Assembly: GCA_016188065.1 (NCBI GenBank)
Contig: JACPIN010000002.1
Span: forward strand, 5,758 to 69,757
Reading direction: 5' to 3'
From: Candidatus Woesearchaeota archaeon
Lineage (GTDB): Archaea; Nanobdellota; Nanobdellia; SCGC-AAA011-G17; ARS1403
Length of the DNA: 64,000 bases
This document shows, piece by piece, positions 2,134-63,098 of the stretch (its first letter is position 1; each line of letters starts with the position of its first letter). The position numbers and the translations under genes are program-made. The notes under the pieces were generated by a model. That model saw nothing but the letters and a program-made list of their open reading frames with translations. It had not been told where the DNA came from and did not search any database.

Positions 2134-2943
2134 ATGAAATTCAACACTTATTTCGGAAAGCCAATTAAGGGTGCATATGAAGATTACATAGAGAGAGCTA
2201 AAAATACAAGAGAGGAAAATAACAGAGAAGCCATTGGAACTACTGGAATAAATTCAACTCTCGAGAATCCAAGAGATTATATCCAAATCCCGGGAATTAA
2301 TGGGATTCATAGAAACCCTATAGCCATATCAAAATTTGAAGTTCAAGGAATGAATGGAAAAAATTATGAAGACACCCACAGAGCTGTTTTCCAATTAGAA
2401 AAAGGGCTTTACATTCCAACCCCCGCAATATTCATGCAGCATTTCAAGAACATTATAGATACTTATCAAAATAATCAAACGATTTTTGACGCATCAGGAA
2501 ACCCAATAAGTAAAGAAGAGCATGAAGAAATTTACAGACATTTGACAACTGACTTTAAGGATATATATGGAAATAATCAACCAGGTGCGTGGACATGGCT
2601 TAATGCAGGATTTGTTCAAGGAACCGGCTTTAATAATTTGGACTTGGAAACAATAATTGGTATTAATGCAGATGGAACTTTTAAAACAAGAAAAGAGCCT
2701 TTATTGCCTTGTTTAAATAAAGATGCTTATGCTGAAATAATGTTTAATGCTCAAGGGATAGCAACAACAAAAACTAGAAAGCAGGAATATAAACGCGGTG
2801 AGAATATTTATTTTTATAACCCTGTAAAGGGTGCTGTCGCGGGGTTCAGGTCGAATTCCGGCAGGGCTGACCTGGGTTGCGGCAGGAATCCTGCCGGCTC
2901 GAATTCCTCGCTCGGGGTACGCGCCGCGCGCGATAAGGTATAG
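2134..2943 (+). CDS. DGR target protein 1 (C-terminal VR; CLec/FGE-like fold inferred)
   Basis: 3' end matches TR except at adenines; ends SLGVRAA; N-terminus MKFNTYFGKPIKGAYEDYIER. Confidence 0.9.
   Translation: MKFNTYFGKPIKGAYEDYIERAKNTREENNREAIGTTGINSTLENPRDYIQIPGINGIHRNPIAISKFEVQGMNGKNYEDTHRAVFQLEKGLYIPTPAIFMQHFKNIIDTYQNNQTIFDASGNPISKEEHEEIYRHLTTDFKDIYGNNQPGAWTWLNAGFVQGTGFNNLDLETIIGINADGTFKTRKEPLLPCLNKDAYAEIMFNAQGIATTKTRKQEYKRGENIYFYNPVKGAVAGFRSNSGRADLGCGRNPAGSNSSLGVRAARDKV
2833..2919 (+). repeat. DGR variable repeat VR1
   Basis: 87 nt colinear with TR minus insert; 12 mismatches, all at TR adenines (11 A>G, 1 A>C). Confidence 0.95.
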
Positions 2944-2945
2944 AA

Positions 2946-4646
2946 ATGACTTTGATTCAAGACTTAAACAGGGAAAAAAATAGGATTGGATTAGTCAGTG
3001 GCAATTTGAAAATTAATGAATATGATGATGCAGAGCAAAATGTCTCTGCTCATATAAATCCTAAAAATTGGAACATTGAAATTACAATGAAAAAAAATTT
3101 TAATCCAATAAATGATAGAAGGCAGAAAGCTTATGCAAGAAAAAAGAAAATAGAAGATGGAAGAAAAAAGCTGTTAGAGGATGTTTTAGCTCATGAATTA
3201 GCACATTGGGAGCTTCCTTTCAGTTCAGGATATGGATGCCCGTTTGATCCCTATAATCATGATAAAATTACAGAAGCAGTTAAAGAAGCCTTGCCAGAAG
3301 ATAAGAAAGCTCAGGCAGGATATGTAGCAAATGCATTTGAAGATTTGATTATAAATCCCCGCTGCAGAGAATTCAAAGGAGACTTTTCAGGCCAGGTTTT
3401 ATTCTGGGATGACCAGGGCTTCCAATGCAGAAAACAAGGGCGTGAATCTTACACGCCTTTTTACGAAGCATTTGTAAAATTAAACATGCATCTGTTTGGA
3501 GATAACTCAGACAAGGCATTATTAAAAAGGCATTACAGCAATGACAAAAAAGTAGAAAAAGCAACTAAAAAAACAATACAGGATTTAAGCTTGCAGGAAA
3601 ATATTCAAGATACTTATCCTTTGTTTGCAAAAGGCCAATGGCCAAATATGGCTTCAGCATTTGCAAAAAATTTGGCCGATTTATTGGAAACAAAACCAAC
3701 AGAAAAGCTTTCAGCTCATTCTGACAATGGAAACGGAGTGGAGCAAAAAGCAGCAACAAGGGAAGGAAAAGAAGAAATTGCTTATGGAAGATATAAGGGC
3801 AATGGTGGGCTGTCGCCAAATATGGCCCCCCACGAGCAGTTAGATTCTTTATACAGAAAATTAGCAAGGGCCATTCCAGTTAAAGTAGAGGCAATTACCA
3901 GAGAGCAGGATTTAGCTATTGCCCCTTTAAATTTCAGGCCTTTTGATGAAGAAAAGGATGACATAAGAAAAATAAAGCCAACAAAATTATTTTTCACAGA
4001 TAATGGAATTACATTTGGCTATGGAAACCAGCAATTATCTGTAACTCAAAAATCAAAAATCCAGAAAAGAAGTTTCCCTAATTTCAAGATGGTGGTTTTA
4101 GATAACTCTGGAAGCATGGCAGAGGGAATCGATGGAAACAGGGGAGACACTTCTTTTATTCCTTGGGGGGATAACAGCAAATACCACTATGCTTTATTAG
4201 GATTTTACGGCATTGAAAATTTCTTGCAATTACAGGGGATAGCTCAATACATCGGTCATGGATTAAGCTTATTTTCTTCAAGCACAAGATATCAGGAATC
4301 TGACTTTAAGGACTTACAGAGATTAAGAAAATTAGCACTATCACCGGAGTTTGGAAGCACTAGATTGGACGCAGGAGCTTTATTAAATGCATTAAAAGGA
4401 AGGGAAAGCTTTGTTTTATCCTTGTCAGACGGAGAAATAGCTAACTGGGATAAAGCAAAAGATGAATTTTACAGATTAGCAGGAAATAACTACTTTGCCC
4501 ATATCCAGATAGGAGGCAAGAACGAATTTACAGAAAATTTAGAGTCCAAGAAATTTCCAGTGCTTTATGTATCTTCAGGAGATGAGCTTTCAAGGTTAAT
4601 GGTCAATGTAGCAAACGACACTTATAGGAGATTTACAAGAGAATGA
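2946..4646 (+). CDS. HExxH metallopeptidase-like N-terminal domain fused to a C-terminal vWA domain
   Basis: AHELAHWE then NAFEDLIIN; MIDAS-like VVLDNSGSM, GST and LSDGE. Confidence 0.8.
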   Translation: MTLIQDLNREKNRIGLVSGNLKINEYDDAEQNVSAHINPKNWNIEITMKKNFNPINDRRQKAYARKKKIEDGRKKLLEDVLAHELAHWELPFSSGYGCPFDPYNHDKITEAVKEALPEDKKAQAGYVANAFEDLIINPRCREFKGDFSGQVLFWDDQGFQCRKQGRESYTPFYEAFVKLNMHLFGDNSDKALLKRHYSNDKKVEKATKKTIQDLSLQENIQDTYPLFAKGQWPNMASAFAKNLADLLETKPTEKLSAHSDNGNGVEQKAATREGKEEIAYGRYKGNGGLSPNMAPHEQLDSLYRKLARAIPVKVEAITREQDLAIAPLNFRPFDEEKDDIRKIKPTKLFFTDNGITFGYGNQQLSVTQKSKIQKRSFPNFKMVVLDNSGSMAEGIDGNRGDTSFIPWGDNSKYHYALLGFYGIENFLQLQGIAQYIGHGLSLFSSSTRYQESDFKDLQRLRKLALSPEFGSTRLDAGALLNALKGRESFVLSLSDGEIANWDKAKDEFYRLAGNNYFAHIQIGGKNEFTENLESKKFPVLYVSSGDELSRLMVNVANDTYRRFTRE

Positions 4647-5404
4647 AATTCAACACTTATTTCGGGAAGAAAGTAGAAGGAGCATATGAGGCTTACTTAG
4701 AGAGAACTAAGCAGGAAAAAGAAGATCCTGAACTCAAAACATCTCAAATATTTGATGTTAGGGCAGATATTAAAGGAGAGGATTATATTAGAATCCCGAA
4801 TACAAATATTATAATAGCAAGGCAGGAGCAATATAAAAATAAGGATTGGGCAGACACACATTATGCTTTAGCAGAAAATGGATTGTTCATGCCCTCTCCT
4901 AAAATATTCATGCCTTATTTTGTACAGGTTAGGGATGCTGTTCAAGGAAAAATTAAATTATATACAGCAGATAATAGAGAAGTTCCAAGAGATGAAGCAG
5001 AAGAGCTGTGGAAATACCTCTCAACAAGCCATAAAGGCGGTTGCTGGACTTGGCTTGACGCTAAATTTTCTCAAGAAAATAACGCTTGGAAGATGACACA
5101 TACTCATAAAGTAATTCAGAAAGGAAAAGAATTGAAAGGAAAAGCCGAAACACTTGAAAGCTGCATAAGAGAAGACGGTTTTGTAGGCTTGGATTTCAAT
5201 TCACAAGGATTGCCAATTAAAAAATCTTCTTTAAGCAAATACAAGCAAGGAGAGAATATTCAGTATTGGCATCCAAGAAACGGCACTGTCGCGAGGTTCG
5301 ATGCCGAATCGGGTAGGGTCGGCCTCAGTTGCTTCTGGAATCCGCGGTACTCGAATCCTGCCCTCGGGGTATTTTCATGCGCCGAAGGCGCGCAAAAAAA
5401 TTAA
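4643..5404 (+). CDS. DGR target-family protein 2
   Basis: Paralogue of targets 1 and 3 (WTWLDAKF, QGLP, YWHP, LGVF); VR-like GC-rich 3' end. Confidence 0.85.
   Translation: MKFNTYFGKKVEGAYEAYLERTKQEKEDPELKTSQIFDVRADIKGEDYIRIPNTNIIIARQEQYKNKDWADTHYALAENGLFMPSPKIFMPYFVQVRDAVQGKIKLYTADNREVPRDEAEELWKYLSTSHKGGCWTWLDAKFSQENNAWKMTHTHKVIQKGKELKGKAETLESCIREDGFVGLDFNSQGLPIKKSSLSKYKQGENIQYWHPRNGTVARFDAESGRVGLSCFWNPRYSNPALGVFSCAEGAQKN
5288..5371 (+). repeat. variable-repeat-like region VR2, not cognate to the local TR
   Basis: Colinear with TR but ~17 mismatches at non-A positions; followed by GCGCC-GAA-GGCGC hairpin at 5379-5391. Confidence 0.75.
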
Positions 5405-5405
5405 G

Positions 5406-6158
5406 ATGAAATTCAACACTTATTTCGGGAAGAAAGTAGAAGGAGCATATGAGAAATATCTGGAGGAGTCTAAAACTGCCGAAAATCATACAGAGTTAAT
5501 AGAAAAACCGATTACAGGCAAGATTCAAAACGGAAATGAATATTTAATTTTGCCAGGAAGAAAACATGGAAGCTATGAATATCCTGATTTGTTAGTTTCA
5601 GCAAAAAGAAGTCATAATGGAGAAAAATGGAATCAAGCGCACGAATCTTTAAAGCAGGAAAATTCTTTTATGCTGACTTTAAGGCAGTATGTTGACTTCC
5701 TTAATTTATTAAAATCAGGAAAAGCATATGATGGAAATGGAAAAGGCATAGATAAAACAAGGCTAGATGGTATTTTAGATGACATAGCAACTGTAAGGTC
5801 TCCTTGGAGGGCTGAATGGCTTGACGCTAAATTCAGCTCAAAAGGAATTGTGAAAAAAAGTTACAGTATTGCCTATCACAAGATAACTCTAAATGGAGAT
5901 TTAGAGGAAGTAACAGAGCCTTTAGATGACTGCTTATTAAGTGATAAACAGATTAATCTCGAAGATTGGTTAAGAAAAGCAACTCCTCATGGTCTTCCAG
6001 CTCCAGATACGAGCAATGGAAGTTTGTATTATTGGCCACCTGCAAACAGAAAAGTCGCGAGGTTCTGGTCGTATTCCGGCTGGGCTGGCCTGGTTTGCGG
6101 CAGGGATCCTGGCGGCTCGGATTCCTCGCTCGGGGTACGCGCCGCGAAAATTAGGTAG
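5406..6158 (+). CDS. DGR target protein 3
   Basis: Start moved to ATG 5406 (MKFNTYFGKKVEGAYEKYLEE, matching its paralogues); C-terminal VR3. Confidence 0.9.
   Translation: MKFNTYFGKKVEGAYEKYLEESKTAENHTELIEKPITGKIQNGNEYLILPGRKHGSYEYPDLLVSAKRSHNGEKWNQAHESLKQENSFMLTLRQYVDFLNLLKSGKAYDGNGKGIDKTRLDGILDDIATVRSPWRAEWLDAKFSSKGIVKKSYSIAYHKITLNGDLEEVTEPLDDCLLSDKQINLEDWLRKATPHGLPAPDTSNGSLYYWPPANRKVARFWSYSGWAGLVCGRDPGGSDSSLGVRAAKIR
6054..6137 (+). repeat. DGR variable repeat VR3
   Basis: 84 nt colinear with TR minus insert; 17 mismatches, all at TR adenines (13 A>G, 4 A>T). Confidence 0.95.
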
Positions 6159-6195: not shown

Positions 6196-6399
6196 ATGAC
6201 AAATGTAACTCTTAATCAAGTTAATGAGAACCTCCTAATATTAAAGAGAGAAGTAGATTACATCAAGGAATTATTAGAGGAATCAGATAGGGAATTTAAA
6301 CCATCAAACAGAAATATGTTTAATTTATTAATAAGTGAAAAATCATTAGCTAAAGATTGGCTTACTAAAGAGGAAGATAAAGCATGGAAAGATTTGTGA
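6196..6399 (+). CDS. putative antitoxin (DUF2281-like C-terminus)
   Basis: SEKSLAKDWLTKEEDKAWKDL tail; overlaps the downstream toxin. Confidence 0.7.
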   Translation: MTNVTLNQVNENLLILKREVDYIKELLEESDREFKPSNRNMFNLLISEKSLAKDWLTKEEDKAWKDL

Positions 6400-6716
6400 A
6401 AGGCGATGTAGTTGTCATTCCTTTCCCATTTTCTGACTTAAGTGCATCCAAGAAGAGACCTGCTTTAGTATTAGCAGGTTTAGAAGGAGATGATTTAATT
6501 CTATGTCAGATAACAAGTGAAGCAAGATTTGATAAATATTCAATTGAATTAAAAAATACTGATTTTAAACAAGGAAAGTTAAATATTAAAAGTATGATCA
6601 GACCAAACAGGTTATTTACAGCAGATAGGTCATTAATCCAGTACAAAGTTGGTTCTTTAAAAAATGAAAAATTAAAAGAAGCAGTTGATGAATTAATTAA
6701 ACTATTTAAAGAGTAA
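6384..6716 (+). CDS. mazF: PemK/MazF-family toxin
   Basis: GDVVVIPFPFSDLSASKKRPALV and CQITS motifs. Confidence 0.9.
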   Translation: MERFVKGDVVVIPFPFSDLSASKKRPALVLAGLEGDDLILCQITSEARFDKYSIELKNTDFKQGKLNIKSMIRPNRLFTADRSLIQYKVGSLKNEKLKEAVDELIKLFKE

Positions 6717-6795
6717 TATTTTCCATTAACATCTAGCCTTGCGAAAATTATTAAAATAATCACTTATTTCTAATCTTGTCCTAGAGATTATTTTG

Positions 6796-6822
6796 AGATT
6801 TTTCTTAATCCAAGAAAAATCT
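6796..6822 (+). terminator. perfect 11-bp hairpin between mazF and the TR leader
   Basis: AGATTTTTCTT-aatcc-AAGAAAAATCT; function inferred. Confidence 0.4.
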
Positions 6823-6937
6823 ATGAAGGATAGTAACTTGGGCTACATGCAAGTTCATTACGGCATGGACGGTTTAAGTCTATATGTCATGAAATTCAAT
6901 AGCGATAGTTAGGTGATAATTTGATGAATTTGCTACA

Positions 6938-7042
6938 GCTGTCGCGAGGTTCAGGTCGAATTCCGACAGGGCTAACCTGAATTGCAACAGGAATCCTGAC
7001 AACTCGAAATCTAGCAGAGACGAGATTTCCTCGCTCGGAATA
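6938..7042 (+). repeat. DGR template repeat (TR) containing an 18-nt insert
   Basis: AAC/AAT-rich copy of VR1/VR3 just upstream of RT; diverges from the VRs after CTCGG (IMH*-like). Confidence 0.95.
7009..7026 (+). other. predicted BHB intron within the TR
   Basis: CTCG(7003-06)/CGAG(7021-24) helix, bulges AA|A and AT|T, inner stem TCT/AGA; removal gives TCGAATTCC as in VR1. Confidence 0.8.
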
Positions 7043-7066
7043 ACCCAAGTCCCAGGACGTTTCGTA

Positions 7067-8176
7067 ATGAAAAATTACAGGAAGATATATCTAAAATTAT
7101 GCTCTATAGAGAATCTAAACTCGGCTTTCAAGAAAGCAAGAGAAGATAAAGCAAGTTTGCCTTATGTGATTAAGTTTGAGAAAAATTTAGTAGAAGAGTT
7201 AAAGAAACTTCAGAAAGAATTGTCTTCAAAGACATACAAGTCATTTCCATTAAAAAGATTCATAATAAGGGATCCAAAGACAAGGACAATTCACGCATCT
7301 GCTTTCAGAGACAGGGTTGTTTATCATGCTTTAGTCAATATTTTAGAGCCGATTTTTGATCCAATCTTTATTCATGATTCATACGCATCTAGAAAGGGAA
7401 AAGGAACTTTGAAAGCGGTCCAGAGATTTGATCATTTCAAGAGAAAAATAAGCAAGAATGGAAGATTAGCAAAAAATGCCTACAATAAAAGCAGTGTTGT
7501 TGGTTATGTTTTAAAAGCAGATATTAAGCATTACTTTGATACAGTAGATCACGAAAGATTATTGAGAATAGTTGAAAGTAAAATAAAAGATGAAAATGTA
7601 ATGTGGCTAATAAAGCAGGTTTTAGTCAATTTTGATTCTCCCATTAAAGGAAAAGGAATGCCCTTAGGAAATTTAACTTCTCAATTCTTTGCGAATGTTT
7701 ATTTGAATGAACTAGACCAGTTTGTAAAGCACAAATTAAAAGCAAAATATTACATAAGATACGTGGATGATTTTGTAATATTACATAATGATAAAGGAAA
7801 ATTATTAGAATATAAAGATAAAATCGGCAAATATTTAATGTATTTAAAATTAGGATTGCACCCAACCAAGTCAAATATCATTCCTTTAAGAAACGGAATT
7901 GCTTTTTTAGGTTACAGGATATTTTATCATCACAAACTATTAAGAAAAAGCAATATAGATAAGTTTGAAAGGGATTTCAATCAAAAGCTTGAGATTTACG
8001 AAGGGGGGGGGGGGCGATACTCGTATGAAAATTTGCTTGCAAGCATTGAAGGATGGTTCGGCTATGCTATGTGGGCAAATACTTACAAATTAAGAAGAGA
8101 AATTATAAAACAAATTAGAGCTTTAGAGAATAAATGCTCAAATAAAACACTACATCTCCCTAAAATCAGGGAATAA
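7067..8176 (+). CDS. DGR reverse transcriptase
   Basis: FRDRVV, LKADIKHYF, GMPLGNLTSQFFANVYL, YIRYVDDF; adjacent TR. Confidence 0.95.
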   Translation: MKNYRKIYLKLCSIENLNSAFKKAREDKASLPYVIKFEKNLVEELKKLQKELSSKTYKSFPLKRFIIRDPKTRTIHASAFRDRVVYHALVNILEPIFDPIFIHDSYASRKGKGTLKAVQRFDHFKRKISKNGRLAKNAYNKSSVVGYVLKADIKHYFDTVDHERLLRIVESKIKDENVMWLIKQVLVNFDSPIKGKGMPLGNLTSQFFANVYLNELDQFVKHKLKAKYYIRYVDDFVILHNDKGKLLEYKDKIGKYLMYLKLGLHPTKSNIIPLRNGIAFLGYRIFYHHKLLRKSNIDKFERDFNQKLEIYEGGGGRYSYENLLASIEGWFGYAMWANTYKLRREIIKQIRALENKCSNKTLHLPKIRE

Positions 8177-8246: not shown

Positions 8247-9155
8247 ATGGAATTAAATAGGACAACCCATAAGATACTGAAAGCGTTATTGGAAAATCCA
8301 TTACATGAATTCAAGGAAATAGAGCTGATAAATAAATCACTGGTAGGAAAGGGCTCAGCGAGCCATGCGATAAGCGGCCTAATTAGGAATAAAGTCTTAA
8401 CAGAAAAGAGGGTAGGGAAGGCTAAAATTCTTTCTCTAAATTTACAAAGCCAATCTTTTTTCTTATTGAAGAGTTTATTTGATCAGGAAAAATTATTGCA
8501 GATGGACAAAAATAGATTATCCCCACTTTTATTTTTCAAAGATTTAATCAAAAAAGACATTCAGCTTTTAGCCGTTTTCGGTTCTACTATAGCAGGAACA
8601 TCAACAGAAGAAAGTGACATAGATGTTTTGATTGTCACAAATAATCCTGAGAAAGTAAGCAAAGAAAGGAAAAAGGCAGAGGAAATATTTGGGCAAAAAT
8701 TCAATTTGCATATTTATACTGAAAAAGAAGTAAGAAATAAATTAAAAGAAGATCATTTTATAATAAACGCTTTATTAAAAGGAATTTTAATCTACGGCTA
8801 TGATTTAACTAAAGAGTTATTCTCAGAGATTAATAAAGGAAAAATTGACCTTCAAAGATTATTTTTCTTTAATGAGAGAATAAATTCAGCAGAGAAAAAT
8901 TATCTTAATAAAGATAACAGCGCTGCTCAGGAGATCATAGAAAAAACATTAGAGCAAATAATATTTTACTTGTTATCCGAAAAAAATATCAGTTATGCAA
9001 GCAAAACAGATGCTAGGAATCTCATAAATAAGCATTCAGAGGGAAAGGCAATAACAAAGATAAGGAAATCATCACTAAGAGAAAAAATCGCTTTAAGTAG
9101 AGGATTAATAATGAACATATTAAGAGATAAGATATTTGAAAAGGAGGGATTATGA
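8247..9155 (+). CDS. wHTH-MNT nucleotidyltransferase antitoxin, copy 1
   Basis: N-terminal wHTH; FGSTIAG...SDIDVL motif. Confidence 0.85.
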   Translation: MELNRTTHKILKALLENPLHEFKEIELINKSLVGKGSASHAISGLIRNKVLTEKRVGKAKILSLNLQSQSFFLLKSLFDQEKLLQMDKNRLSPLLFFKDLIKKDIQLLAVFGSTIAGTSTEESDIDVLIVTNNPEKVSKERKKAEEIFGQKFNLHIYTEKEVRNKLKEDHFIINALLKGILIYGYDLTKELFSEINKGKIDLQRLFFFNERINSAEKNYLNKDNSAAQEIIEKTLEQIIFYLLSEKNISYASKTDARNLINKHSEGKAITKIRKSSLREKIALSRGLIMNILRDKIFEKEGL

Positions 9156-9529
9156 ATAAGGAAATCAAAAAAGACATTGAAAGGGCAAAGCAGGCTTTAG
9201 AATCTGCTCAAAGAAACCTGAAAGAGGGAGATATATTAACGGCAGCAAACAGAAACTTTATCGCATGTGAAAATGCTATTTATGTATTGTTAAAATCAAA
9301 ATTTGGCTCAACTTCTATAAGCAGGATGAAAATTTTAACTAAACTAGAGGAAATAGATCCTAGTGCAAAAGAAGCATACGACAGTTCTTATGATTTAAGA
9401 GTTCAGGCAGACTACGGAAGAGAATCTAGGGCCATTCCATTAAACAAAGAAAGTCTTGAAAATTCTCTTGAAAGCGTAAATAATCTTGTAGAAAAAGCAA
9501 AAAAAGTATTGGAAAAAAATAAAGCCTAA
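9152..9529 (+). CDS. HEPN-domain protein, copy 1
   Basis: RAKQALESA...AANRNFIACENA...LRVQADY; coupled to MNT. Confidence 0.85.
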   Translation: MNKEIKKDIERAKQALESAQRNLKEGDILTAANRNFIACENAIYVLLKSKFGSTSISRMKILTKLEEIDPSAKEAYDSSYDLRVQADYGRESRAIPLNKESLENSLESVNNLVEKAKKVLEKNKA

Positions 9530-10674: not shown

Positions 10675-10706
10675 AGCTTATATACCCAGGCTTGTTAAAC
10701 TTTATT

Positions 10707-11630
10707 ATGGAACTTAGCAAGATTTCAGTAAAGATATTGAGGGCGTTGCTGGAAGCTCCTCTCCACGATTTTAAAGAAATAGAACTGATAAACAAAGCAA
10801 AGGTTGGAAAAGGATCAGCAAGTGACTCAATCAACAGATTAGTTGAAAGCAATGTTCTTAAAGAAAAAAGAATAGGGAAAGCTAAGATTATCTCATTAAA
10901 TTTAAAGAGTCAATCTCTATTCTTATTGAAAGGGCTTTTTGATGCTGAAAGGCTTTCACATCTGGAAAAAAACAAGCTGACCTCAATTATCTTATTCAAG
11001 AGATTAATTAAAAGGTATACAGAGTTTTTACTTGTTTTTGGTTCTACTGTCGCAGGGACATATTCAAAAGAAAGCGATATCGACCTTCTTGTAGTGACCA
11101 AAGATCTAAATAAGGTAAAGGCAGAAAGAAAGAACGTTGAAGAGCTATTTGGAGAAAGATTTAATCTTCATGTTTATACAGAAGAAGAAATAAGAAAGAA
11201 TCTCAAAGCAGAGGGATTCCTAAGAAATTCCTTATTAAACGGAATTTTAATTTATGGGGAAGACTTAGGCATGGAGTTATTGTCAAGTATGGGCATTGAG
11301 GAAAATATCGACATTCAAAGGCTTATCTTTTTAAATGAAAGGGTAAGCTCAGCGCGCAAAAACTATCTTAATCAAGATAGCAAAGCTGCTTCAGAAATAT
11401 TAGAAAAAACACTTGAACAAATAATATTCTATTTATTGTCAAGAAAGGGGATTAGTTATACAACCAAGAAAGATGCAAAAAAATTGGTTAAAAAAACAGC
11501 CGAGGGCAGATTAATAGAAAGAATAGAAAATGCCTCTTTAAAAGATAAAATTCATTTAGGCAGCGAATTAATTTTAAATATCTTAAAAGAAGAAATCTTA
11601 AAGGATGAAGGCTATGAAAGAAAGGATTGA
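10707..11630 (+). CDS. wHTH-MNT nucleotidyltransferase antitoxin, copy 2
   Basis: Paralogue of 8247-9155; FGSTVAG...SDIDLL. Confidence 0.85.
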   Translation: MELSKISVKILRALLEAPLHDFKEIELINKAKVGKGSASDSINRLVESNVLKEKRIGKAKIISLNLKSQSLFLLKGLFDAERLSHLEKNKLTSIILFKRLIKRYTEFLLVFGSTVAGTYSKESDIDLLVVTKDLNKVKAERKNVEELFGERFNLHVYTEEEIRKNLKAEGFLRNSLLNGILIYGEDLGMELLSSMGIEENIDIQRLIFLNERVSSARKNYLNQDSKAASEILEKTLEQIIFYLLSRKGISYTTKKDAKKLVKKTAEGRLIERIENASLKDKIHLGSELILNILKEEILKDEGYERKD

Positions 11631-11994
11631 TGAAGATCTTAAGAGGGCTAGGCAGGCATTGGAATCAGCTGAGAGAAACTTAAAGGAAAATGACTTGCTT
11701 ACTGCAGCTAATAGAAACTTTATTGCATGTGAAAATGCTATTTATGTATTATTAAAATCAAAATTTGGTTCTAGCACTATAAGCAGGATGAAAATTCTAA
11801 CAAGGTTGAGGGAAGTCTCTTCTAAAGCAAAAGAAACATACGATAGCGCATATGATCTAAGAGTTCAAGCAGATTATGGGCGGAAAGCAAGATTGTTTCC
11901 ATTAAATCAGGAAAATTTAGAAAAATCAATAAGGGAAGTAAAGGAGATTGTTGAAAAGGCATCTGAAATTATTAATAAAAAGTTTATTTTATAA
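11614..11994 (+). CDS. HEPN-domain protein, copy 2
   Basis: Paralogue of 9152-9529; LRVQADY. Confidence 0.85.
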   Translation: MKERIDEDLKRARQALESAERNLKENDLLTAANRNFIACENAIYVLLKSKFGSSTISRMKILTRLREVSSKAKETYDSAYDLRVQADYGRKARLFPLNQENLEKSIREVKEIVEKASEIINKKFIL

Positions 11995-19551: not shown

Positions 19552-20563
19552 TTAATCATCAACTCTCCACTTAGGATCAATCCCTATTTCTATTTTTTTA
19601 ACGTTTAAATTATCATAATATTTTTTATTTTTTTTGTATTCCAAAATTCCTGTCCATGCAATCATTGCAGCTTGATCGCCGCTCCACTTCATTGGCACGA
19701 CTTCAAATTTGCAATTTCTTTCCTTGCACATAATCTGCAGCATTTCAATTAATCTTCTATTAGCAGCAACGCCACCAATCAAAAGAAGTTCATTTTTATC
19801 AGTATGCGCTAAAGCCCTTTCACTTACCTCGGAAAGCATAGCAAAGCAAGTTTCCTGCAGGCTATAGCACAAATCTTCTTTCTTAACTCCTTCTTTATAT
19901 AGTTGAATTGCTCTCGTTATTATCCCCGAGTATTCAACATCCATTCCCTTGACAACATACGGCAGCTCAACATATTTTCCTCCTCTAGCAAGTTCTTCTA
20001 TTTTAGGTCCGGCTGGAAATCCCAGGCCAATTTCTCTTCCAAATTTGTCCAGAGCATTTCCAATTCCAATACTTAATGCTTCCCCGAAAATTCTGTACTT
20101 ATTTCCTTCAAAAGCAATTATCTGCGTATTAGCGCCGGTAGCTAAAATAAAAACAGGATCTTTCACTTTGCACATTAATTTCCCGATTTCTAAATGTGAA
20201 ATCAAATGTGAAACTCCTACAAGAGGGCTTCCAAAAATTTTTGCTTGTTCTTTAGCAGCATTAGCTCCGACCCACAGAGAAAGAGGCATTCCAGGTCCTT
20301 GCGAAAAGGCAACCAAATCAAATTTTTTTATTTTTGAATTTTCAACAGCATCATATAAAATCCTATCTTTCACTCTTTTCAAAAATTCAGCACATTCATT
20401 TGGAATTATCCCTTTCTCAGGATTTTTATACATCTCTCTAGCTTCGCTTAAAATTTTTCCATCTTCTGTCACAACAGCAGCACTAAAAGTATCTCCGCAA
20501 TTATTTTAGAGCGGTACTTTCAATGCCAAGACAGACCAATCCTTTTTTTCTTTTCTCTTTCAT
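19552..20563 (-). CDS. kae1: t6A synthase Kae1, split by a 16-nt intron: join(20563..20509, 20492..19552)
   Basis: SQGPG, HLISHLE, GNALDKFGR, GGVAANRRL; N-terminal CLGIESTAHTFSAAVV is restored only after removing 20493-20508. Confidence 0.92.
20493..20508 (-). other. predicted BHB intron in kae1 mRNA
   Basis: AAAGTA-CCGC-TC|T-AA-aataa-TT-GCGG-AG|A-TACTTT: full hBHBh' motif; contains an in-frame stop. Confidence 0.88.
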
Positions 20564-20571
20564 ATTATACC

Positions 20572-21744
20572 TTAGTTAAATCTTACCGAATATTTATTAT
20601 GAGTTCTTAGTATTTTCATTCTATAGATATTGTTTTCTAAATGAGAACTGTTTAAATTATTTAATTTCATTAATTCAATAGCACAATCTATGGGGATAAA
20701 TTTTTTGTTTTTCTTCCAAAGGGGGATATAGACATCAAATATGGAAGAAACATCTATCTGATCAAATGATTTGCATTTCTCTTTTAAATAATAAGAAAGT
20801 TTTTTATATTGTCCAAACTTTTTATGTGATATTTTATTGGCAGCATTCACGATTAATTTTTTCTGCCAACCTTTCCTTAATAAAACACAAATATTAGGAG
20901 GTTCAGATTTATCATAATTGTGCAAATAACCTTTTAGTTCTTCCATTTTATTTTTGTACTTTAGAGACTTCAAAATCTCTTGAATTTTTGCACGTTTTCT
21001 ATAAGTATAGGGAACATTTTCTAGAAATTTTATCATATTCTTTTTCTCGGTTAATACTCTAATGGCTATAGGGTATGTTACTATCCCCTCTTTTGAGATC
21101 AATTTCTCACTTTCACATATTTTAGGTTCTGTGACTTTGATACCAAAACCAGATAACAACCTCATTACATCTTTCATAAATCCTGAACTAAAATCTTCAA
21201 CCAAATTTTCTTTTGCATTTAATGAAAATTTTAATGATTCACAAGAAAGTTTAGATTTCTTTAATCTAGGAGTTTCACCATCTCCAGAGAATAAACCATC
21301 TATAAATTTCCATTTCAAGGAGTCTTCTAAATCAAAAATCCATATAGGTATCCTAAAATTTTGATAATTTTTATTTCCGATGGGTGATCCGACATGGACC
21401 ATTAATCTCCCTAAACTAGCAGGAAGATAAACATAATAAATTCCATTCAAATGAGGTTCTAAACAAATATTCCAAAATTTTTTAACATCGCTACAAAAAT
21501 TCAAGGCATCAATTTTATCACTAAAACATACGTAAAATGTAATAGACCTATTATTCTTTTGCTCATAGATGCATCCATCAGAGTATCTAAAACCAAGCGT
21601 AATAATAAATTGTTGGAAAGCAGGATTTTTAGAAACAATCAAAGGAAGCAGGTTCATATCTTTTAACTGTTTTATACCTTCTTCTCTCTTAAAATCTGTG
21701 GTAGAATAATATTTCATTAAATCTTTTTCTGTTGCCAATATCAT
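20572..21744 (-). CDS. free-standing LAGLIDADG (DOD-type) endonuclease
   Basis: LGFRYSDGC and FIDGLFSGDG motifs; no intein termini. Confidence 0.8.
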   Translation of the reverse strand: MILATEKDLMKYYSTTDFKREEGIKQLKDMNLLPLIVSKNPAFQQFIITLGFRYSDGCIYEQKNNRSITFYVCFSDKIDALNFCSDVKKFWNICLEPHLNGIYYVYLPASLGRLMVHVGSPIGNKNYQNFRIPIWIFDLEDSLKWKFIDGLFSGDGETPRLKKSKLSCESLKFSLNAKENLVEDFSSGFMKDVMRLLSGFGIKVTEPKICESEKLISKEGIVTYPIAIRVLTEKKNMIKFLENVPYTYRKRAKIQEILKSLKYKNKMEELKGYLHNYDKSEPPNICVLLRKGWQKKLIVNAANKISHKKFGQYKKLSYYLKEKCKSFDQIDVSSIFDVYIPLWKKNKKFIPIDCAIELMKLNNLNSSHLENNIYRMKILRTHNKYSVRFN

Positions 21745-25745: not shown

Positions 25746-25863
25746 GGGCTCGTAGCTCAGTCTGGTTAGAGCACCAAATCAGAAGTGATGTGCAGGTCTT
25801 ATATGACGTAGCCAGATACACTAAGAGAGCTGGCGGTCGGCGGTTCAAATCCGCCCGGGCCCA
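25746..25863 (+). tRNA. tRNA-Ile(UAU) with two BHB introns (25777-25795 at 29/30; 25804-25827 at 37/38)
   Basis: Cloverleaf restored after removing introns with helices GCAC/GTGC and CTTA/TAAG; loop CT-TAT-AA. Confidence 0.85.
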
Positions 25864-62294: not shown

Positions 62295-63011
62295 ATGAAA
62301 ATTGATTCATCAAATCTGGAGTTTAGTAAGAAGGATCTTGATAGAGGGATAATTATTCCTGATAAACTTTCATCTGAACTATCAGAGGATATTGGATTTC
62401 ATATAGGAGACGGTTACATGAAAAGAAGAAAAGACAATTATGGTCTTCATTATGATTTTGTCTATTCAGGAAAACACCCTGAAGATCTTGATTATTTTAA
62501 AAATGTATTAATTCCACGCAAGGAGAACCTTTTTAACTTAAAAAGAATGATAATAAAGAATCCAAAACCCAATGAAATTTTTTTGAGATTTCATTCAAAG
62601 GTCTTATTTTTGTTTTATCGGGATATTTTGGTTGTTAAAGAATATACAAAAACAGATATCAAAATACCTGAATGGGTTTTTCAATCATTAGATTTTCAAA
62701 AATCTTTTTTACGTGGAATGATGGACTCAGATGGATATTTTAAAACTGTAAAGAAAAATTATCCCATAATAGACTTTCATCTTCAAAGTAAAAATCTAAT
62801 AAAAGGAATGGGAAGGATCTTAGATAATTTGAATATTTCTTTCAGCTCATATAAAAGAGAACAATATGATAAAAGAACTAATAAGGTTTACGTTAAGTTC
62901 ATAGTTCAGATTAGTGGTAGAAAAAATATTCCTATATGGAAAGACGAGATTGGGTTTAAGAATTCAAAGCATATCGGGAGATATAATCGGTGGATACTGG
63001 GTCCGGGGTGA
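62295..63011 (+). CDS. free-standing LAGLIDADG endonuclease
   Basis: EDIGFHIGDG and FLRGMMDSDG; stop lies inside tRNA-Val. Confidence 0.88.
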   Translation: MKIDSSNLEFSKKDLDRGIIIPDKLSSELSEDIGFHIGDGYMKRRKDNYGLHYDFVYSGKHPEDLDYFKNVLIPRKENLFNLKRMIIKNPKPNEIFLRFHSKVLFLFYRDILVVKEYTKTDIKIPEWVFQSLDFQKSFLRGMMDSDGYFKTVKKNYPIIDFHLQSKNLIKGMGRILDNLNISFSSYKREQYDKRTNKVYVKFIVQISGRKNIPIWKDEIGFKNSKHIGRYNRWILGPG

Positions 63012-63098
63012 GTCGAACACCCGATCTCCGCCTTGTAAGGGCGACGTCATTTATGGAATCTTTCTCCTTGAAAAATTTAACCACTAGACCACGGACCC
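62998..63098 (-). tRNA. tRNA-Val(UAC) with a 28-nt D-loop BHB intron (63051-63078)
   Basis: GTGG/CCAT helix with TT|A and AA|A bulges; CT-TAC-AA loop. Confidence 0.88.

Follow-up and report, generated by a model that had tools for sequence, protein, structure and literature searches.

A diversity-generating retroelement (DGR) lies in a 64,000-nt stretch of DNA from a Candidatus Woesearchaeota archaeon, hereafter the window, which is part of contig C9 of an 881-kb archaeal genome (26 contigs; completeness 91%). The template repeat (TR) of this DGR is probably interrupted by a bulge-helix-bulge (BHB) intron 12 nt upstream of IMH*, the TR counterpart of the initiation of mutagenic homing (IMH) sequence, and splicing by the host endonuclease EndA and the ligase RtcB would precede copying of the template. 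Comparisons of genomic DNA show that the insert is TR-specific and structurally conserved, that it is lost with staggered boundaries of the EndA type, and that TR information from both of its sides reaches the variable repeats (VRs). Its removal would take place at the RNA level, presumably by EndA and RtcB. DGRs and BHB introns are each well known; a natural intron in a DGR template appears to be new. The analysis extends an observation made at one locus to a conserved, active class of DGRs and to a second, independent insert (locus L010).

In the mechanism proposed here, the DGR RNA would be transcribed as the RT-16 leader, TR and reverse transcriptase (RT). The local fold would consist of a 4-bp CUCG/CGAG helix with a 3-nt bulge on either side, and an inner hairpin. 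Cuts after the second base of each bulge would be made by EndA, the tRNA-splicing endonuclease of the host, and RtcB would ligate the exons. Only the joined RNA would be copied by the DGR RT into an adenine-mutagenised cDNA that replaces VR1 and VR3. VR2 would be served in the same way by a sister element with its own template (TR2), located on another contig of the genome, C6.

Geometry of the TR1 insert

An earlier note on this DNA had reported an insert in the TR that is missing from all three VRs. Alignment of the window TR (TR1) with VR1, VR2 and VR3 bears this out as a single 18-column gap, the segment 7009-7026 being present only in TR1. The CTCG/CGAG helix, the AAA and ATT bulges and the TCT/AGA inner stem described there are all present (Table 1), and the geometry scores as a complete central helix (4/4), an inner helix of 3 bp and an outer helix of 1 bp. 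The cuts that the note predicted, 7008|7009 and 7026|7027, regenerate VR1 and also VR3; TR1 without 7009-7026 is exactly the sequence of both, A-to-N sites aside. The proposed closing pair A7002-U7028 is not conserved in relatives. VR2, which had been counted as a VR of this TR, is actually the target of the second TR on contig C6.

With the boundaries set by the indel, a 4-bp central helix and an inner helix of at least 3 bp in the same register are found in 71 of the 63,920 18-nt segments of the window (0.0011). The chance rises to 0.0044 when the four alignment-compatible shifts are allowed. With free boundaries, the same combination of helices occurs in the window at 0.033 per position, or about once per 30 nt. 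A BHB motif by itself therefore means nothing, and the signal is its coincidence with the indel boundaries. A kink-turn was considered for the same segment and rejected, as by eye no G.A pairs follow the bulge.

Distribution of the insert among related DGRs

With the RT as query, species-representative genomes yielded 521 relatives and metagenome contigs 552; from either set 80 were retained, and 80 viral loci were added. The relatives of the window RT carry the labels Woesearchaeota, Nanoarchaeota or Pacearchaeota. A pattern-free screen of 241 loci and the window (242 sources), which looked for TR-only segments bounded by clean matches between TR and VR, gave 10 candidates. Six are the same-site insert (the window, L002, L003, L025, L082 and L083). 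L010 carries a different 36-nt insert at another TR site. The 11-nt TR/VR difference of L013 was rejected as a BHB insert because it lies in an AAC repeat; like the 13-nt difference of L028, also in an AAC repeat, it fits published slippage. L129 and L145 are alignment artefacts at the IMH. A motif scan contributed two more loci, L005 and L069, with VRs that lie off the contig; one further match was false and lies inside an RT gene.

The same-site insert is present in all seven RT-retrieved loci with an RT identity of at least 60% and upstream sequence, and it is kept across RTs that have diverged to about 57-60% identity. A pattern search of 240 genomes from the same order found it in 19 (21 matches, vs 1 for a reversed-pattern control). 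Across the phylum, 10 of 401 sampled genomes gave matches, three of them outside the order, and a covariance model confirmed two of these three; the match in G255 (L269) was not confirmed. All 20 parsable matches from the order and the two confirmed matches from outside it are followed by the TR-type IMH*, and none by the VR-type. A search of 96 further sources (842,756 bases) with the covariance model, built from 24 sequences, found no new intron. It returned only L268 and L270, already found by pattern, and the intron-less TR of L071. The latter (L071:2544-2579) has the same exon context and is aligned by the model with the intron deleted, and L071 is thus, as judged from this alignment, a natural homologous empty site for comparison. 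No TR insert of the same kind was found in the viral contigs (80 loci, RT identity at most 42%).

In a FastTree phylogeny of 160 RTs, 15 rows form an all-intron clade (support 91) with L003 and L260 nearby, and four rows form a separate intron clade (support 100). Presence of the intron requires a minimum of four changes on this tree, two of them forced by strongly supported branches; since the tree is quick and unrooted, gains are not distinguishable from losses.

Junctions read from TR-VR pairs

Each TR was joined in silico at the two predicted cuts, which follow base 2 of the 5' and of the 3' bulge, and compared with its VR over the 31 nt around the junction. The VR corresponds to the TR so joined in 20 TR-VR pairs, drawn from 18 loci. 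The differences comprise 85 A-to-N changes on the 5' side, 8 on the 3' side, spread over 7 pairs, and one change at a base other than A. L003, L251 and the TR2-to-VR2 comparison add three concordant pairs, giving 23 in all. In each case the 5' strand of the central helix and two bulge bases are retained, and the 3' strand and two bulge bases are removed. Archaeal EndA cuts after the second base of each BHB bulge. The staggered boundaries are the pattern that would be expected of archaeal EndA, and not of skipping of a whole hairpin. The A-to-N changes on both sides of the junction indicate that the cDNA runs through both exons and copies a joined, insert-free template.

In 19 of 20 pairs, CTCGRR is followed in the VR by the third base of the 3' bulge. 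If every adenine may mutate, a +1 shift of the junction is formally compatible as well; it needs an extra A that is always mutated to the base following the 3' cut, and that base is the one seen in 19 of the 20 pairs. The boundaries share no microhomology, as the intron starts with AT and the 3' exon with T, C, TG or CG. For the unrelated insert of L010, the junction predicted from the BHB is among the four that its VR allows.

Sixteen of 20 introns contain a stop codon in the VR frame, and in 11 of 20 the length is not a multiple of 3. A stop or frameshift from an unspliced insert would damage the target gene, which accounts for purifying selection on spliceability and on the core of the motif.

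Structural conservation and covariation

In the set of 24 sequences, 97.1% of cells are paired, vs 28-50% when the partner strand is slid, and both the pairing and the covariation score exceed those of all 500 shuffles. Double-sided changes occur at three pairs. A set of eight sequences that was not selected by pattern behaves likewise, with 91.0% of cells paired vs 25-45% with the 3' partner slid, and also three double-sided changes. The central helix is paired in 24 of 24 homologues, its outermost pair being CG in 22, UA in one and UG in one. The UA pair belongs to the UUCG/CGAA helix of L083, a locus that came from the pattern-free screen. In the inner helix, pair 22-53 is CG in 18 sequences, UA in 4 and UG in 2, and pair 23-52 is UA in 19, AU in 1, UG in 1 and another combination in 3. 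The inner helix and the UA variant of L083 are free of search-pattern bias.

The inner helix comprises 2-8 bp in all members, and the sequence and length of its loop are free, giving introns of 15-38 nt. The 5' bulge AAA is invariant (24/24). The 3' bulge takes the forms ATT, ACT, ACC, AAT, AAC and ATC, its first base always being A. The minimum free energy (MFE) structure is the BHB fold in TR2, L003, L083 and L010. The insert of L010 (3380-3416) belongs to a more distant DGR, with an RT 56% identical, and its MFE structure resembles the strict helix-bulge-helix-bulge-helix form (hBHBh'; z = -3.35), with three of four pairs in the central helix and an A.A mismatch. An open reading frame (ORF) the size of Avd lies between TR and RT in L010.

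In TR2, L003 and L010 the MFE structure pairs the exons with each other beyond an internal loop. Several members allow exon-exon helices of 3-5 bp, by eye and from the MFE, in a register that shifts. An outer helix is not claimed here because of this shifting register and because chance alone is expected to produce 4-bp matches between two stretches of 12 nt.

A second DGR in the same genome and present-day activity

The sister element on contig C6 (L244) occupies approximately 6728-8144 of the minus strand and encodes an RT 72.5% identical to that of the window. TR2 carries its own 18-nt insert at the same site as TR1. Within the repeat, VR2 departs from TR2 at TR2 adenines only, and its 3' exon matches TR2, not TR1. 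TR2 also templates another VR at C15:254-322. The first ~135 nt of the C6 reverse complement appear by eye to be identical to approximately 6776-6910 of the window. The assembly therefore probably broke at the repeated RT-16 leader.

Present-day activity was assessed in contigs, not reads, of the four DNA runs in which the locus is present, all made on groundwater in a single study. In three of these runs the contigs carry the TR2 form. An alternative VR3 allele in the contigs of these runs has 11 differences, 10 of them at TR1 adenines, and the population variants of VR2 are at TR adenines in three of three cases. Taken together, 13 of 14 allele differences fall at TR adenines, which make up 24 of 83 TR positions, indicating that the DGR is active and that diversification continues with the insert present in its TRs. 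Of the indels and joints that were listed (15 of the 43 joints), none deletes 7009-7026 from a TR and none adds the insert to a VR. The persistence of the insert down to about 57-60% RT identity and the current variation of VR3 and VR2 refute the caveat of the earlier note that the insert might be younger than the last retrohoming or might have inactivated the DGR.

One short contig, present in all four runs, differs from the window at nine listed positions just upstream of VR1 (2676-2726). The segment lies outside the VR and is likely a paralogue or strain variant rather than a product of DGR activity.

Host tRNA introns and splicing enzymes

The same cut rule gives valid tRNAs from three intron-bearing genes of this genome, those for tRNA-Val(UAC), tRNA-Gln(CUG) and tRNA-Arg(UCG), in agreement with the geometric match between the TR insert and host tRNA introns proposed in the earlier note. 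Enumeration of tRNA introns based on ARAGORN is very noisy, and three clear cases were used. Spliced tRNA-Val matches its intron-less tRNA-Val(GAC) paralogue across the junction. The tRNA-Gln intron implies that the organism must process BHB motifs with almost no outer helix. The introns of tRNA-Val(UAC) and tRNA-Gln(CUG) are at non-canonical positions. A further tRNA in the window (25746-25863; Rfam, 47.3 bits) is enlarged by 43 nt in its anticodon arm; removing any one BHB did not yield a convincing tRNA, and two introns may be present.

The genome encodes an EndA of 191 aa (C7:33369-33941) with a full-length match to TIGR00324. Its best relatives of solved structure are the alpha subunit of N. 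equitans and the alpha4 enzyme of M. jannaschii. No EndA paralogue was found in this genome. RtcB is encoded at C1:53601-56354 in a 975-aa frame, and its Pfam match falls in two pieces about 1.3 kb apart in the one open frame, suggesting an intein.

Weighing the alternatives

Several findings weigh against an EndA-spliced intron. One is that no RNA run was found to contain the locus. The MFE structure of TR1 predicted by ViennaRNA is not the BHB but a hairpin between CGAG and a downstream CTCG or the 7-bp hairpin GAAATCT/AGATTTC, and local folding of TR1 is no better than that of shuffles (z = 0.32 and 0.12). The earlier note had foreseen the 7-bp competitor, which is indeed predicted as the MFE of TR1; it is rejected as the functional fold because it is not conserved in L025, L005, L003 and TR2. 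In the 24-sequence set, the search pattern fixes most of the central helix. As the same-site introns derive from one or few events, independent support comes from two insert families only. The second VR of L248 fits a junction shifted by one base better than the predicted one. A conserved outer helix beside the 3' bulge is lacking, and the motif is therefore of the relaxed and not of the strict hBHBh' form. This bears on the enzyme. According to the portion of Kaneta et al. (2018, PMC5829648) considered here, relaxed motifs need a specific loop, enzymes without it handle them poorly, and an alpha4 EndA with an L3 loop goes with disrupted tRNA genes in DPANN archaea. The sole EndA found in the present genome is a short alpha4-like subunit that aligns without gaps to that of M. 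jannaschii and is without the 6-residue insertion of the N. equitans alpha subunit. The main weakness of the proposed mechanism is thus whether this EndA would carry the loop needed for relaxed motifs; as the genome is 91% complete, a second EndA subunit could be missing from the assembly.

One alternative is template jumping, in which the RT would skip the structured insert on unspliced TR RNA and EndA would be uninvolved. The insert forms a hairpin in every member, AAC occurs 4 nt upstream of the junction, and TR/VR indels are on record in 25 of 372 DGRs, where the sections of Wu et al. (2017, PMC5758913) consulted describe them as small and ascribe them to slippage at AAC. However, the boundaries are not at any hairpin base, and the stagger is identical in 23 pairs despite introns of 15-38 nt. 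Jumping would find no microhomology at the two boundaries. It also leaves the conserved 3-nt bulges and 4-bp helix unexplained, and with them the same geometry in the unrelated sequence of L010. Template jumping is therefore considered improbable. An even smaller likelihood is given to loss at the DNA level, by which the cDNA would contain the insert, flanking homology would drive replacement of the VR, and the insert would be looped out during integration or repair. The 12-nt 3' exon and the IMH could supply homology, and the mechanism of DGR cDNA integration is not established, according to the part of Naorem et al. (2017, PMC5703328) available to this analysis. Such a process would have to resolve a 15-38-nt loop always against the cDNA, yet resolve A-to-N mismatches on both sides in its favour, and it offers no reason for a covarying BHB or for exact staggered boundaries.

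It is scarcely credible that the TR1 insert is a recent neutral or inactivating insertion with a BHB shape by chance in a dead or dying DGR. The abundance of BHB-like motifs when boundaries are free and the unremarkable fold of TR1 would suit such an origin. Against it stand the conservation of the insert at one and the same site in 19 of 240 genomes, its presence in two DGRs of the genome studied here, its covariation, the A-mutagenised VRs on both sides of the junction, and the present variation of VR3 and VR2 at TR adenines; a dead DGR is already refuted by these observations. The claim of the earlier note that the TR insert is an EndA-type BHB intron spliced before templating is supported by the conserved BHB, the junctions at EndA positions and the TR information from both sides in the VRs.

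What the intron does for the DGR is a separate matter. Most simply, the intron is an old passenger that is kept spliceable by selection. A more speculative proposal, considered here less likely than not, is that the intron is a working part. By breaking the homology between TR and cDNA 12 nt from IMH*, it would shield the template from its own mutagenised cDNA, and hypermutation would depend on EndA and RtcB. If so, the VRs would be a natural DNA record of RNA splicing in uncultured DPANN archaea and would provide the first in vivo evidence of a processed RNA intermediate in archaeal DGRs. As the earlier note envisaged, splicing may also gate or regulate diversification rather than serve as an obligatory constitutive step.

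Relation to known systems

Archaeal BHB introns occur in pre-tRNA, pre-rRNA and a few pre-mRNAs and are processed by EndA and RtcB; their presence in pre-mRNA and pre-rRNA is also noted in the consulted portion of PMC5829648. The TR introns resemble them in the 4-bp helix, the two 3-nt bulges on opposite strands, the inner hairpin, the predicted cuts after bulge base 2 and the short size (15-38 nt). Unlike them, the host RNA here would be the non-coding template of a retroelement, and the spliced product would be read out as DNA in the targets. The TR intron also differs from strict BHB introns in having no conserved outer helix, and its cleavage is a prediction.

The DGR itself shares with those of Bordetella phage BPP-1 and of Nanoarchaeota an RT of the DGR clade, adenine-specific TR/VR differences and a VR at the 3' end of the target. 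The contrast between IMH TGGGGT and IMH* TGGAAT described for Nanoarchaeota in the examined part of Paul et al. (2015, PMC4372165) is the same as that seen here, and that part describes no TR insert. L060, from the organism of that study, is among the relatives and has the same RT-16 leader. Described DGRs have a TR colinear with the VR, whereas here a structured 15-38-nt segment is in the TR only. The RT-16 motif (RF03019) is part of the same transcript, ends at the start of the TR (6941), excludes the intron and is present in intron-less relatives.

The closest precedent is engineered. As described in the consulted sections of PMC5703328, a td group I intron was placed in the BPP-1 TR, and ligated-exon RNA was copied with A-mutagenesis. 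The principle, an intron spliced before copying, would be the same, and the archaeal case would be its natural counterpart. The td intron is an artificial insertion, self-splicing as a ribozyme and hundreds of nt in length, whereas the archaeal TR intron is natural, conserved, 15-38 nt long and presumably protein-dependent.

The earlier note knew of no described DGR with an intron in its TR, and searches of the open literature, supplements aside, found no description of a natural intron in a DGR template; the supplementary TR/VR indel tables of PMC5758913 might list one of the loci described here. No open-literature paper was found that treats DGRs together with bulge-helix-bulge motifs. Judged from titles as listed and abstracts, none of the listed matches for BHB and retroelements is about DGRs, and the one open-literature paper found to combine diversity generation with a splicing endonuclease is unrelated.

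If the proposed mechanism is correct, a host tRNA-processing enzyme would be an obligatory cofactor of targeted protein hypermutation in widespread ultrasmall archaea. The VRs would then read out the in vivo cut sites of EndA on a non-tRNA substrate, which bears on the open question of how broad the specificity of the alpha4-type EndA of DPANN archaea is. Nature would also have performed, in uncultivated archaea, the test of the RNA intermediate that was engineered with a TR intron. On the practical side, DGR-finding software that expects colinear TR and VR will truncate or miss such TRs; the alignments of TR to VR in the BLAST screen ended at the insert.

Organization of the locus

The locus combines a DGR-type RT beside a TR, adenine-specific TR/VR differences, distinct IMH and IMH* sequences and ongoing diversification of the VRs. 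Outside the 18-nt gap, all mismatches of TR1 are at adenines (11/11 with VR1 and 16/16 with VR3), and a TR/VR pair lies upstream of the RT in hundreds of relatives. On the plus strand, three paralogous target genes (ending at 2943, 5404 and 6158) are followed by a PemK/MazF-like pair, the RT-16 motif, TR1 and the RT. Coordinates are given in Table 1.

Table 1. Features of the DGR, the putative TR intron and intron-bearing tRNA genes (window coordinates unless a contig is given)
Feature	Position	Strand	Remarks
RT-16 RNA motif (Rfam RF03019)	6809-6941	+	structured leader directly 5' of TR1; 50.7 bits vs gathering score 50
TR1 (template repeat)	6938-7046	+	templates VR1 and VR3; end 20 nt before RT start
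TR1 5' exon	6938-7008	+	ungapped vs 2833-2906 and 6054-6124; 11 and 16 mismatches, all at TR adenines
Central helix, 5' strand CTCG, exonic	7003-7006	+	pairs with 7021-7024
5' bulge AAA	7007-7009	+	predicted cut 7008|7009; VR junction puts exon end after second A
18-nt TR-only insert, putative BHB intron	7009-7026	+	absent from all VRs; same-site homologues 15-38 nt
Inner helix TCT/AGA	7010-7012 with 7018-7020	+	loop AGCAG; element 7010-7020
Central helix, 3' strand CGAG, intronic	7021-7024	+	pairs with 7003-7006
3' bulge ATT	7025-7027	+	predicted cut 7026|7027
TR1 3' exon	7027-7038, into IMH* within 7027-7046	+	identical to VR1 2904-2915 and VR3 6122-6133
IMH* CGGAATA	7036-7042	+	in TR1; CGGGGTA in all three VRs
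DGR reverse transcriptase, 369 aa	7067-8176	+	RVT_1, E = 1.6e-22
VR1	2833-2930	+	3' end of ORF 2134-2943; insert-free junction 2903|2904; IMH core 2913-2919
VR2	5285-5382	+	3' end of ORF 4643-5404; junction 5355|5356; templated by TR2 (contig C6), not TR1
VR3	6051-6148	+	3' end of ORF ending 6158; junction 6121|6122; IMH core 6131-6137
tRNA-Val(UAC)	62998-63098 (C9:68755-68855)	-	28-nt D-loop intron; central helix 4, inner 8, outer 2
tRNA-Gln(CUG)	C22:91397-91497		26-nt D-arm intron; central helix 4, inner 8, outer 1; 5' bulge AAA
tRNA-Arg(UCG)			intron at 37/38

Of 11 related loci scanned, 10 have the RT-16 motif directly 5' of the TR, intron-less loci among them, with scores of 70-101 bits; the motif resembles a 5' domain of the DGR RNA in this archaeal lineage. 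A Pfam scan of the small ORFs neighbouring the RT, in which no dedicated search for Avd was made, recognised no Avd; its matches were only PemK/MazF-like and MNT/HEPN.

The PemK/MazF-like ORF and a small ORF upstream of it (6196-6716) lie between the last target gene and the DGR leader. On the 3' side of the RT are two diverged nucleotidyltransferase and HEPN pairs (8247-9529 and 10692-11994), which form a 75% identical repeat (D1). With these pairs and the PemK/MazF-like ORF, the neighbourhood of the DGR looks rich in toxin-antitoxin genes. Farther along the window, a Kae1/TsaD ORF on the minus strand (19552-21744) seems by eye to be without its N-terminal part. The ORF in front of it (390 aa) has a LAGLIDADG-like motif and may represent an intein or a homing endonuclease carried by an intron.

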